Positions 1,101 to 62,020 of a stretch of DNA of 64,000 nucleotides are shown here, in pieces. How positions within the stretch are numbered: the first letter of the stretch is position 1; the number at the start of each line of letters is the position of its first letter. The translations under genes and the position numbers were made by a program. The notes under the pieces were generated by a model. That model saw only the letters and a list, made by a program, of their open reading frames with translations. It was not told the origin of the DNA and did no database searches. The stretch is taken from the NCBI GenBank assembly GCA_964016885.1, contig OZ024758.1:24676001-24740000 (forward strand). Direction: 5' to 3'. Source of the DNA: Eledone cirrhosa (Eukaryota).

Positions 1101-1720
1101 AAGTAGGCATACCTATGTATTGAAACACATCCACGCAAAAAAAAAAAAAAAAAAAAATAAATATTTATATATACCCAACAACCACAAACCCTTTATTTGT
1201 TGAGTCACCAGAATCTGATGAACAGATTGATACTGAAGTCGTGTCCATAACTTCCAGAGGTGACATTGAGTAAATCCTCTGGGAAACACACATAACAGTA
1301 AAAAAAAACATGCAAAAACTTCATTTTTCTTATTTTATACACACACTATATATAGATATACATACATACACACACACACCCACATTCATATATATATATA
1401 TATATATATATATACACACACACACACACATACATACATATATACACACACACATATATACACATTATATATATAATTATAAATACTGGGTAAATCTTCT
1501 GTGGCTGTGGATCGCGGATAAAATAGCTATCATTTATTTATCTATTGTTTCCTCATAAGTACATTTTAAACTTATAGCCTCGTTTAATTGATTTTTTTTT
1601 GTGTGGTTGATTATGCTGATTGGGAGAACTATTGTATATATTTATCAAATGATTCTATGGACTAACTTTCTTTTTATATATATATATATATATATAGTTA
1701 TGTAATAAACAACATAAGGC

Positions 1721-1790
1721 AATTATTCCATTTACCAGTGGTTTCTTAAAAGCAAAAAATTTTGCTTTCAATCATCAGAATGAAAAAATC
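1721..1790 (-). ncRNA. Type I hammerhead ribozyme (mirror copy)
   Basis: Exact reverse complement of the hammerhead at 1801-1870. Confidence 0.75.
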
Positions 1791-1800
1791 CTGGTCTCAG

Positions 1801-1870
1801 GATTTTTTCATTCTGATGATTGAAAGCAAAATTTTTTGCTTTTAAGAAACCACTGGTAAATGGAATAATT
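1801..1870 (+). ncRNA. Type I hammerhead ribozyme
   Basis: gattttttcatt-CTGATGA-ttgaaagcaaaa/tt/ttttgcttttaa-GAAA-cc/act/gg-TA-aatggaataatt. Stems I, II and III all pair. GUA triplet, with cleavage predicted after 1858. Confidence 0.8.
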
Positions 1871-2189
1871 GCCTTATGTTGTTTATTACATAACTATTAA
1901 GCTCTGTTACCTACATAGAGCACTCTTTTTTCCTGGACTTTTCCAACGGAATTACTTCATTTATATATATATACACACATGTACATAAATATACACACAA
2001 TATAGAGATATATCTACATATTTGTTAAGTTCTTCAAATATTCTAAAACACGGTTAGAATCTTTTAAAGAATAAATCAATACTGACATGGTTGAACAAAT
2101 TTAATATCAAATGAAAAGATGTTTGTATAACCCATGTAAACATGGAGAAATATATATAAAAATGGTGATGGTGGTGATGATACAAATGA

Positions 2190-2998
2190 CATTGATGGCA
2201 CAAGTGTTCCTGTTGATACGATCAACAGAACAGCCTCCTCGTGAAATTAACCTGTAAGTGGCCGAGCATTCCACAAATACACCTACCCAAAGCGTAGTTC
2301 TCAGAGAGATTCGGCTTGACGCAGAATGTGACAAGGCTGGGACCTTTGACTTACAGTTACAACTCATTTGTGAAATTAACATGCAAGTGGCCGAGCATTC
2401 CACAAACATGCGTACCTATATTGTAGTCTCAGGGAAATTCAGCATGACACAGAGTGTGACAAGGCTGGGACTTGAATTACAGGTACAACTCATTTTTGCC
2501 AGCTGAGTGGACTGGAGCAATGTGAAATAAAGTGTCTTGCTCAAGGAAACAACACTCCGCCGGGAATCGAACTCACGACCTTGCGATTGTGAACCAAATA
2601 ACCTAACCACAAAGCCACGTGCCTTCACACAAATGACATTAAACAAGTAAAGACCCCCCCCCCCCCGCCCCTTCAGTCATAAATGACCATGGAACTTGTA
2701 CCTAGAACGTTCCCCTCCAAGGTATAAGTCCGGGCAAGGTCATTTGTGGAAGACCAGCAGTCACCCATGCATTCCAGCCTCCCCTCTCCACGCCACTGAT
2801 GATGTCCAAGGGAAAAGCAATGGCAGATACAGCTTGGCACCAGCGACATCGCAACTCATTTCTACAGCCGAGTAAACCAGAGCAACGTGAAGTAAAGTGT
2901 CTTGCTCAAGAACACAACACAAGGCCCAGTCCGAGAATCGAACTCACAATCTGACAATTGTAAGCCCGATGCTCTAACCACTAAGCCATATACCTTCA
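2190..2998 (-). mobile_element. Two tRNA-derived CORE-like SINEs
   Basis: Minus-strand head (gtggcttagtggttag...gagttcgattc, A and B boxes) followed by tccttgagcaagacactttatttcac. Further copies at about 9005-9262, 10180-10505, 22215-22565, 24745-25035, 39943-40282, 50535-50970, 52270-52512, 58335-58560 and 59760-59925. Confidence 0.75.
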
Positions 2999-3239
2999 CA
3001 CAAATGACATTTGACATTATATAAAGCAACAATTTGAGACAGATTTGAGCCCAAAACTTGATGTGGCAATCAATTTATTTATATTTTATACATTATATAT
3101 ATTTTGTAACTTCAGTGTTTTTCTTTTCTGCCTCACTTAAAAATGTGGCTTTTTGACCAAGACAGAAATAAACTATATTATATACAAAAATGGAAATCCT
3201 TTTATCAAAATATGTGTGGAAAGAGGTTTAGAAAAGAAT

Positions 3240-3636
3240 TTAACCCTTTAGCATTTAAACCAGTCGTATCGAGCCAGAATTCTCTCACCTTTCTGTTCAA
3301 ACCAGCCATAACCGGCAGCTCATACTTATATTAAGGTACTGTTCTCAAAATAATTGGTTTCACCTTTGGCACAAGGCCACCCAAGTGCATTACTGGTACT
3401 TTATTTTATCGACCCCTGTAAGGATGAAAGGCAAAGTTAACCTCGGCGGGATTTGAACTCAGAACATAAAGGGCCATAACTCTATGCTGCAAAGCATGGT
3501 GTCTGACGCTCTACCGATACTGCAAATCCACAATAATTAATATCAATATCTCATAGATTCCATGTTATGTAAGATAAAGTGTTTACTGTGAAAATACAAT
3601 AGTATATATAGTGTAATGTAAATGCTAAAGGGTTAA
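3240..3636 (+). mobile_element. piggyBac-type MITE interrupted by a SINE
   Basis: ttaa-CCCTTTAGCATTTA...TAAATGCTAAAGGG-ttaa termini, with a SINE at about 3360-3530 inside. Confidence 0.75.
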
Positions 3637-3879
3637 GTAACTCTTTGGTTCCAAAAGAAAATTTAGCATTAGAGATTTCCCTTTTTTCTTTCATTTATTT
3701 TTTTGGAATGAAAAGAAGTATTTACTTATGTTTCCTTTAGATCTCTCTGGTCATACAAAATTTGTGTGAAAACTGCCTGAATCCAGACATAGGAGGCACT
3801 TTGGTTTATGTTCTGGGGAGGAGTAAAATTTACTATATTCTGTTTAATAAAATTACAGGTTTTATTGTAAAAAATTCAA

Positions 3880-59401: not shown

Positions 59402-59655
59402 TTAGGTAAGGCGGGTCTTCTCTGTTACTGAGTACCGCCAAAGGTCTCGGTCCAGTGACATTGTCTTGGAGAGGTGTAAGTGTGTGATGTCAGAGTTTAT
59501 CAGCTCGTCCCAGGTTTTTCTAGGTCTGCCTATTCCGTGACTACCGTCTATCTTTATTGCCCTGCACTTTGTTATACAGCTATCGACTTTCATGCGCATC
59601 ACGTGTCCATACCAACGTGTCCATACCATGCGCATCACGTGTCCATACCAACGTA
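59402..59655 (-). mobile_element. RTE-like LINE 3' fragment
   Basis: RWYGHVMRM...GRPRKTWDELI...DRDLWR. Confidence 0.8.
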
Positions 59656-60870
59656 TATATATATGGAGAGATGCTGTGCTGAATAAGACCCGTCCCATCC
59701 TTGCAAGCAGGGAAAAGCGGACGTAAAATGATGATGATGATGATGATGATGATGATATGGTAGTAATTCCCGGACCGGGCGATGCGTTATGTCCTTGAGC
59801 AAGACACTTTATTTCACGTTGCTCCTTCTGCCTGGAGTTGCGACCGATAGATAGTACTAGCAATTGGAAAGACCAATGGAAACATTGTTTCCTCGGTCCG
59901 ATTTGACGAAAGTCGATCGTTCCTAATATGGTAGTATTGGTAGAGTAAATGGGTGGTGGATTGGTAGAGTGTCGGACAATATGCTTTGCGGCACAGAGTT
60001 ATAACTCTTTACATTCTGCTGAGGTTAGCTTTGCCTTTCATCCTTAAGGGGCCGATAAAATAAAGTACCAGTTATGCACTGGGGTTGATTAAATTGACAT
60101 TCCCCTTCCCCACAATTGTTAGCCTTGTTGCCTCAATCAGAAACCATTTTTGCCTTTCATCCTTACGGGGTCGATAAAATACAGTACCAGTAATACACTG
60201 GGGTAACTGCTGCCCTTGTGCCAAAAGTAGAAACAATTATTAGTATTTATGATGTAAGAGTGAGAAGGATAACCTTTAATGTCGAGGTTAACTTTGCCTT
60301 TCATCCTTACGGGTGTCGATAAAATACAGTACCAGTAATACACTGGGGTAACTGCTGCCCTTGTGCCAAAAGTAGAAACAATTATTAGTATTTATGATGT
60401 AAGAGTGAGAAGGATAACCTTTAATGTCGAGGTTAACTTTGCCTTTCATCCTTACGGGGGTCGATAAAATAAAGTACCAGTAATACACTGGGATAATTGC
60501 TAGCCTTGTGCCAAAAGTAGAAACCATTATTAGTATTTATGATGTATGAGTGAGAAGGATAACCTTTCATACTTCAGCTGATGAAGCAGAGGTTATACTC
60601 AGAATTCAAAGAGAAGAGAATCAAGTTACAAACATAATTACATTTAACAAGTTCCACCCAAGTTAGGGAATGGGGAAAATGATTGTTTCTACAATTTGAA
60701 GAGGAGGGCAAAGTCGATAAATTGATCTCAGTGCATTACTGGTGCGTTATTTTATTGCCCCAGAAAGCCAAAGCCAACCTCAGCGGGATTTGAACTCAGA
60801 ATGTAAAGGGCCGGAACTCTGTCATGAAGCATGGTGTCAGATGCTCTACCGATTCTGCCAATCCACTGCC

Positions 60871-61135
60871 CAGAGTTGGGATTTATGTATAAGCTAAACA
60901 AGCTATAGCTTAGGGCCCCCACTCTCTTAGGGCCCCGAAAAAAATTGAAAAAAAAAACGGTGTGTACATTTCCAAAATATAAGATAAAAAAGAACTAAAA
61001 TAATGCAATAGTTTTAAACAGTTTTCTGCTTTAATATTGAACGTTTTGCAGTTTTTATAACATTTTTTTATATTATATAAAGGGCCCCATTATCTCAAAT
61101 AGCTTAGGGCCTCATCAAATCTAAATCCGGCCCTG
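60871..61135. mobile_element. hAT-type MITE
   Basis: cagagttgggattta...taaatccggccctg termini, with an 8-bp TSD ccactgcc on both sides. Confidence 0.75.
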
Positions 61136-61516
61136 CCACTGCCCATGGGAAAACAATGAATACCAAACATCAAAGGTGTGTAAAAAGAGATCAGGTTGGA
61201 CAGAGGGAGAAGAATGATATTTTGCTTTTACTATGCTATTCAGAACAAGAAGCATATTTAACCCTTTATCATTTAAACCGGCTGTATCCGGCTGTACTCA
61301 ATACGCTTGGCCATATGTGGGTTAGTGAAGCTATTTAACCCATATGTATGTATGTGTGTGTGTATATATATACATATCTGTATATATGGAAAGTTATATT
61401 TAAATTGTTGGGTTACAACGAGTAAATATTTATAACTGATATAAAAGCACTCAACAAGTATTTGGAGTATATTTACGATATTAAATAAATGGAAACTATA
61501 TTTATAAAACCATATT

Positions 61517-61581
61517 TATTTCATATATAAATTTCAGGGATATCATATTAACAATATGTTATGCCTTCTTCAGACAAAATA
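61517..61581 (-). ncRNA. Hammerhead mirror copy with an altered stem III and cleavage region
   Basis: Reads GAAA-tttatat-atgaaata instead of GAAA-tatatata-atgaaata. Confidence 0.55.
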
Positions 61582-61718
61582 CAATATAGACAGTTTTATA
61601 AATAAATAGATTTGACATACCTTTCAACATCGACTTGCATTATCAAATCAACTTTTCAAATGCAAGTCGATGTTGAAAGGTATGTCAAATCTATTTATTT
61701 ATAAAACTGTCTATATTG

Positions 61719-61784
61719 TATTTTGTCTGAAGAAGGCATAACATATTGTTAATATGATATCCCTGAAATATATATAATGAAATA
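61719..61784 (+). ncRNA. Minimal type I hammerhead ribozyme (CUGAAGA core)
   Basis: tattttgt-CTGAAGA-aggcataacatatt/gtt/aatatgatatccct-GAAA-tatataTA-atgaaata. Confidence 0.8.
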
Positions 61785-62020
61785 AATATGGTTTTATAAA
61801 TATAGTTTCCATTTATTTAATATCATATCTGTATATATATATATATATATATATAGGAAAATGTTTAACCCCGACGGCAGAGCTCAAGCCGTTCCGACGG
61901 CTAATTCTGGACTATATATATATAAGCAGAAGGGATATTCAATTTGTTGGTAATTCAACAAATATAAATATAAACTGATTCAGAGCCCACTCGACAGGTT
62001 TTCTGGAGTATAATATTCAA

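Follow-up and report, generated by a model that had tools for sequence, protein, structure and literature searches.

The foldback loci described here raise the question of what kind of element carries hammerhead ribozyme motifs on its two opposing arms, and how such a structure forms. Four foldbacks, designated E1 to E4, were located in a 64,000 nt stretch of the Eledone cirrhosa genome (assembly GCA_964016885.1, contig OZ024758.1, positions 24,676,001 to 24,740,000, forward strand), referred to here as the window. They occupied 1697–1963 (E1), 31097–31619 (E2), 57775–58149 (E3) and 61388–61827 (E4), close to where an initial annotation made from the sequence had put them, and each had a tail on one side only. 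Our analysis points to each locus being a 5′-truncated insertion of a Hydra-type Penelope-like element (PLE), in which a tailed 3′ end lies head-to-head with an inverted, tail-less 3′ end. This arrangement likely formed at insertion, with both cut target strands priming reverse transcription at two fixed sites on the RNA of one source element; we give this reading a probability of roughly 0.88.

The four loci fell into three families, A (E1), B (E2 and E3) and C (E4); E4 was 76–80% alike to E2 and E3 across the arm and E1 aligned to neither. Genomic copies, labelled L001 and so on, were fetched from the 3.0-Gb assembly, and in all three families some of them had an arm and tail leading into an open reading frame (ORF) for a reverse transcriptase (RT)-endonuclease, one ORF being intact. 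The complete family C copy L157 consisted, in order, of an inverted tail-less arm, a pseudo-long terminal repeat (pLTR) with tail, a 747-codon open frame, a 1.3-kb 3′ untranslated region (UTR), a second pLTR with tail and a (TA)n tract. The 747-codon frame between the two pLTRs encoded YRDD and a C-terminal YVG-type domain. The full-length loci L121 (family C) and L122 (family A) contained one frameshift each, and L121, L122 and L157 all combined a partial tandem of the pLTR with an inverted 5′-truncated copy and a one-sided tail. In family A the tail continued into the RT frame in L037 and L122, and the sequence of the E1 tail was found as the leader ahead of the ORF in full-length copies. 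For family B, 12 regions were fetched, some of them uninformative; L190 contained, in order, the tail, a broken ORF with about 61% identity to that of family C, the 3′ UTR and the hammerhead, and in L186, L189, L191 and L194 the end of the ORF was joined to a family B arm. The arms and tails are thus the ends of PLEs bearing RT-endonuclease ORFs and the motif is the pLTR hammerhead, which bears out the suspected link to Penelope. The accompanying description of a non-autonomous foldback family does not hold, as arm plus tail is the 3′ end of an ORF-bearing PLE in all three families. Additionally, L122 had another element nested in its family A 3′ UTR (2933–4148), with a Pfam GIY-YIG match and its own 209-nt inverted ends.

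Analysis of the ORFs revealed the motifs RW[K/R], DKT, CxCX5C, CxxC, CxH and YRDD. The first of these read RMRWK in family A, RLRWR in B and RIRWR in C, and DKT was present in all three. The CxCX5C linker, CxxC and CxH were present in A and C; in family B the linker was found in the L191 and L196 frames, and CxxC and CxH were present. A crude pattern search, made without alignment to reference endonucleases, found no CCHH motif in the endonuclease of A or C. A named homologue near the top of the protein matches was from Argonauta hians (40% identity), and a by-eye comparison of the start of the family A ORF with Hydra-1_Obim gave 23 matches over the first 36 aligned residues. The 150 best endonuclease matches of family C were 97–100% identical, several of them in frames of 736–761 codons, and family C is therefore young.

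The Hydra clade of C-terminal-endonuclease PLEs (Craig et al. 2021, PMC8557442) has the same ORF motifs, (TA)n targets and a canonical hammerhead near the 3′ end; section 11 of that paper gives as its marks RWK, DKT in place of DKG, CxCX5C, CxxC and CxH, and the layout seen here is that of its Fig. 2. Lack of a CCHH motif in the endonuclease is a further mark of the clade. In its supplement, the Hydra-clade element Penelope-13_HM is likewise given an inverted copy truncated at its 5′ end, with hammerheads on the two strands. The Eledone families differ from the cited description in several respects. Their tails are 66–88 nt compared to 30–40 in the clade, and the family C unit is 3.7–3.8 kb, as opposed to ‘generally <3 kb’, because of its 1.3-kb 3′ UTR. 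Families B and C encode RWR where the clade has RWK, and family A, unlike the clade, has a second hammerhead-like copy within its 3′ UTR. Hydra-1_Obim of Octopus bimaculoides has a different hammerhead, and families A, B and C are not among the families listed in the cited parts of PMC8557442.

The component parts of the four loci, with the repeat flanking E2, were as follows.

1697–1794, minus strand: E1 (family A), inverted tail-less PLE 3′ end; hammerhead 1785–1726, predicted cut after 1733
1798–1963, plus strand: E1 (family A), tailed 3′ end; hammerhead 1806–1865, predicted cut after 1858; tail about 1898–1963
31083–31097, plus strand: left copy of the 15-nt direct repeat of E2
31097–31345, minus strand: E2 (family B), inverted 3′ end lacking the tail and containing additional 20-nt repeats; broken hammerhead core, reading CTAATGA at 31192–31186; inner border approximate
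31346–31619, plus strand: E2 (family B), tailed 3′ end; hammerhead 31423–31484, predicted cut after 31476; inner border approximate
about 31530–31619, plus strand: E2 (family B), tail
31619–31633, plus strand: right copy of the 15-nt direct repeat of E2
57775–57993, minus strand: E3 (family B), tailed 3′ end; hammerhead 57959–57898, predicted cut after 57906; inner border approximate
about 57775–57865, minus strand: E3 (family B), tail
57994–58149, plus strand: E3 (family B), tail-less 3′ end; hammerhead 58044–58105, predicted cut after 58097
61388–61650, minus strand: E4 (family C), tailed 3′ end; hammerhead about 61581–61516, core intact, two lesions near the cut site; inner border approximate
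about 61388–61476, minus strand: E4 (family C), tail
61651–61827, plus strand: E4 (family C), tail-less 3′ end; hammerhead 61719–61784, predicted cut after 61776

The tail, previously put at about 70–100 nt, measured about 88 nt in family B and about 81 nt in family C, within that range, and 66 nt in family A, below it. As had been noted, three of the loci (E1, E3 and E4) adjoined (TA)n-type tracts, and the flanks of the fetched copies also showed insertion into (TA)n. E2 lay outside (TA)n, and the 15-nt direct repeat on both of its sides is likely a target-site duplication; a search for an empty site found none and the right flank is single-copy, so that the duplication is unproven. Downstream of E2, the section between 31845 and 32340 was an inverted duplicate of the E2 left arm and about 80 nt of its left flank, including a 14-nt repeat at 32261–32274, with the hammerhead core intact. 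It was preceded by an expanded 18–20-nt minisatellite derived from the family B leader, and its sequence looks like a later rearrangement of E2. A lone family B tail was also present on the minus strand between TA tracts (61924–62021), starting at about the short-end site.

A type I hammerhead descriptor identified seven motifs in the window, six of them within the four loci, against a mean of 0.02 matches (maximum 1) in 100 dinucleotide shuffles of the window. It reproduced the annotated plus-strand cut sites (1858, 31476, 58097 and 61776) and added two on the minus strand (1733 and 57906). The initial annotation had assigned a hammerhead to every arm; six of the eight arms passed the descriptor, and the left arms of E2 and E4 failed, the former through its broken core and the latter through a loop III substitution and one base missing at the cleavage site/stem I′. 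As to the proposed covariation, the printed motifs of families B and C differed in stem I by one-sided wobbles only, and in stem II one or more changes were two-sided (A-U to G-C at the second pair). The fourth pair of stem II is a C-C mismatch retained in both families. The suggested Rfam comparison did not detect these motifs, with no hammerhead family among the 150 listed of 234 window matches and no match of any kind on an isolated arm (L157:2440–2700).

The hammerhead core was conserved across families A, B and C. Comparison of 50 partner arms revealed one substitution in 550 core cells and 62 in 5469 cells elsewhere (one-sided p = 0.017, the cells not being independent), a sequence pattern that points to selection in the source elements. 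Isolated motifs were predicted to adopt the hammerhead fold within 0.1–1.4 kcal/mol of the best alternative fold. In the foldback RNA the hammerhead fold was predicted to be 60–87 kcal/mol worse than the hairpin, so that the competition between ribozyme and antisense copy would be one-sided. The ribozyme is accordingly modelled as buried in the hairpin in the truncated stubs, and any activity that it has is likely confined to the full-element transcript. For minimal PLE hammerheads, weak cleavage of dimers and none of monomers is described (PMC4209133). Three family A copies (L122 at 4374–4444, L039 and L049) had a further hammerhead copy, diverged and without a tail, near the start of the 3′ UTR, separated from the terminal one by about 1 kb of microsatellite-rich DNA; with two hammerheads in one transcript, this sequence arrangement could allow dimer cleavage. 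An unrelated family was represented by another type I hammerhead at 34278–34323, in a single arm between TA tracts. At least ten further hammerhead sequence types were present in the fetched flanks of L001–L197, several of them related to B and C with a different stem II and loop III, and these elements clustered within each other's TA tracts.

Queries made of one arm with its tail returned 962 (A), 2343 (B) and 370 (C) first-look candidates, which are not copy numbers; for each query, 40 candidates were scored and 30 fetched. An adjacent inverted partner was present in 18/30 arm-selected copies of each family, and all 54 partners were tail-less. In the tail-selected samples, which cover families A and B, a partner was found in 27/30 (B) and 20/30 (A) copies and was tail-less in 47/47, some partner lengths being blurred by the arm's own hairpins. 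Copies L077 and L078, duplicates including their flanks, were both counted in the arm-selected pairs and in the 5′-end counts given below, as were L230 and L231 in the tail-selected samples. Endonuclease-selected copies had the same layout with arms of up to kilobases. The outer ends were fixed, always one long (tailed) and one short (tail-less), and the inner junction varied. Arm lengths ranged from tens of bases to kilobases, and either arm could be the longer on its inner side, by up to about 800 nt (L100). Solo tailed copies and very short partner arms also occurred, and in 9/30 (B) and 11/30 (A) tail-selected copies the tailed arm was truncated at a point 3′ of where the ribozyme core starts. 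Since the layout is constant, the junctions are mostly unique and the arm lengths are varied, the foldback is remade at each insertion. Two hammerheads are present only when both arms reach far enough back, and a hammerhead on each strand is thus a by-product of where copying stopped. A fixed unit had been suggested by a whole-element query (40 copies); this was selection by the query, as the centres differed and copies found by the one-arm and tail queries varied.

Partner arms shared sequence variants more often than random pairings did. Family A had 15 shared variants in 41 pairs compared to 2.8 (maximum 7) in 2000 random pairings, and family B had 5 in 17 pairs compared to 0.67 (maximum 4), also in 2000 pairings. 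In family C a site upstream of the arm was split about evenly among copies, and 16/17 pairs were concordant at it. The counts of shared variants left out L078, L037 (whose left arm is an internal copy), L001–L003 and L007 (the same places as arm-selected loci) and pairs with a core-less partner. A difference of 1.6–2.5% persisted between partner arms in families A and B, evidence against their having been homogenised later. Judged from these sequences, both halves of a foldback were likely copied from the same source RNA.

The 5′ ends of the arms were also confined. In family B, 33/48 ended between −80 and −70 from the core and one in the next 150 nt upstream; in family C, 25/48 ended between −91 and −83, again with one in the next 150 nt. 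The edge coincided in both families with TCACT, 79–89 nt upstream of the ribozyme core. By analogy with the rotifer pLTR, in which TCACT is called initiator-like (PMC3846280), we regard this as an initiator-like motif. It was followed after 28 (B) and 41 (C) nt, counted by eye, by AAG|GTATGT; Drosophila Penelope has an internal promoter, with a splice donor lying 46 nt beyond the start (PMC2377424). Longer arms extended past the edge, and other templates must therefore be used too (the downstream pLTR, read-through RNA or circles). Starts at a ribozyme cut were too few to use, with 1/48 family A arms (L035) ending within a base of the cut. A cluster of tailed arms whose ends fall close to the second start site (6/30 in A and in B) was not used as evidence, since it fits two enzymes on one RNA and also early truncation beside the query edge.

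An in vitro precedent is provided by the anole PLE Poseidon (Anolis carolinensis; Frangieh et al. 2024, PMC11167929), whose enzyme is a predicted dimer that cuts and extends both strands of AT-rich targets from two RT start sites bounding the tail. In that system ribozyme cleavage is dispensable and RNA beyond the start sites is needed. Poseidon belongs to another clade and its hammerhead and tail overlap the start of the ORF, in contrast to the families here, where both lie wholly upstream of it; the cited passages do not treat inverted junctions. Taken with the 5′-end pile-up and the shared variants, the anole results make two-strand priming on the RNA of one source the simplest model. In this model the RT-endonuclease of the element would nick both strands in (TA)n. 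One target 3′ end would prime at the end of the tail and the other 66–88 nt upstream. Synthesis of both cDNAs would then stall, or proceed off the 5′ terminus of an uncleaved transcript that starts at the TCACT initiator, and microhomology or a template jump would link the two cDNA ends. The hammerhead would be carried along, as it lies between the transcript start and the priming sites, and the resulting stubs are likely dead on arrival. A stricter version is that the inverted pLTR is a double strong-stop product, a dimeric enzyme having primed both cut strands on one RNA at the two tail-bounding sites and both cDNAs having run off the TCACT start before joining; we hold this tentatively, at somewhat less than even odds.

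Several points weigh against these conclusions. Pfam names no RT or GIY-YIG endonuclease in these ORFs or in four homologues, and the probable placement in the Hydra clade draws on motifs and on comparison with reference sequences by eye. The samples were the 30 best of 164 to 2343 first-look candidates and so lean to young copies, and the windows for the 5′-end counts were picked after the data had been viewed. Family A had no sharp edge at its TCACT, its ends clustering instead at a palindromic T/A run. The family C arm itself was uninformative (0 shared variants), and L118 was its sole discordant pair at the upstream site, possibly a two-template event or a single mutation. Shared variants would fit one RNA, two RNAs of one locus or an arm copied off the other arm alike. 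Some junctions recurred at unlinked loci (L113/L119, L069/L085 and L064/L089), which could be explained both by microhomology and by re-mobilisation.

The alternative that survives best is that one cDNA folds back, or antisense RNA self-primes, and copies the second arm, with a second nick setting the tail-less end. Self-priming on an antisense template is proposed for the rotifer Penelope in the discussion of PMC3846280; it would account directly for the shared variants, and many junctions here have short inverted microhomology. The tightest junctions do not suit it: both arms often stop no more than 2 nt from a common 5′ edge with one base between them, as in L093 and L107, where a single base separates perfect arms; this is too tight for an annealed hairpin and fits end joining better than hairpin self-priming. 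A fold-back copy also sits poorly with arms either of which may be the longer inside, as in L100, and with the solo tailed copies and very short partners. We consider this route possible, on balance rather unlikely.

Less probable still, and in our view improbable, is that an internal promoter drives transcription of the short foldbacks, or of solo stubs made of pLTR and tail, and that these are re-mobilised in trans as non-autonomous elements. Many stubs start at the initiator-like motif and may keep such a promoter, rotifer pLTRs can act in trans (PMC3846280), the pLTR was covered at a much higher read depth than the ORF (a purely qualitative comparison that sums related families), and the recurring junctions would be expected. 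Yet most junctions were unique, with 17, 13 and 17 distinct head-to-head junctions in the three families among 18 arm-selected pairs each, so that no fixed whole unit such as a non-autonomous foldback family would have was found. The two family C sequence types each occurred in short and long copies alike, the predicted RNA of a foldback is a long hairpin and, by analogy with the anole enzyme (PMC11167929), stubs that end at the RT start site would lack the downstream RNA that it needs.

Miniature inverted-repeat transposable elements (MITEs) or foldback DNA transposons with an incidental hammerhead, suggested by long inverted arms without an ORF and by the direct repeat around one locus, are refuted by asymmetric ends with a one-sided tail, variable centres and copies contiguous with RT ORFs, and their chance is negligible. 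Metazoan non-LTR retrozymes (Li et al. 2026, 10.64898/2026.07.22.740005) have the same type I hammerhead related to that of PLE pLTRs in an ORF-less copy; these are described as tandem head-to-tail units, whereas the window loci are head-to-head pieces of coding elements whose arms continue into the 3′ UTR and ORF, and this class was rejected as well.

Earlier publications already describe pLTRs in inverted orientation, tails on one side only, targets in (TA)n and hammerheads on opposite strands (Arkhipova et al. 2013, PMC3846280; Cervera and de la Pena 2014, PMC4209133; PMC8557442). Penelope of Adineta vaga (PMC3846280) has the same head-to-head inverted pLTRs with a one-sided tail and an initiator-like TCACT in the pLTR, together with target duplications of 8–10 bp. 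In Schistosoma, minimal hammerheads on opposite strands 100–700 bp apart were ascribed to truncated PLEs (PMC4209133). The passages drawn on from these two papers give no counts of the pairing of tailed with tail-less ends, of shared variants or of a 5′-end pile-up. A literature search, with subscription papers and Repbase/Dfam outside its scope, found no paper on families A–C or on twin priming in PLEs. The window loci are thus truncated insertions of new PLE families with a described layout, to which are added here the same-subfamily partner arms and, in two families, arm 5′ ends at an initiator-like TCACT.

The origin of PLE inverted ends is left open in the cited parts of PMC8557442 and PMC3846280, and the copies analysed here place three constraints on models of it: strict long-plus-short pairing, arms from the same source and arm 5′ ends that stop sharply at a motif resembling an initiator. 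If the inverted pLTRs are double strong-stop products, the young, intact-frame family C and the thousands of genomic products would be a system in which to settle how inverted ends form, and the 5′-end pile-up would map the promoter without RNA data. In repeat libraries these families should be entered as Hydra-type PLE ends and should not appear under MITEs, under microRNA hairpins or as a new ribozyme element.

Elsewhere in the window, a 25-bp tandem satellite extended over about 5 kb (about 14940–19890). Two 208-nt copies (22357–22564 and 39943–40150) were 97% alike and had a weak tRNA match (28 bits, below the gathering score); from their sequence they are possibly a short interspersed nuclear element. 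A strong hairpin at 54085–54191 was matched by sub-threshold microRNA models.

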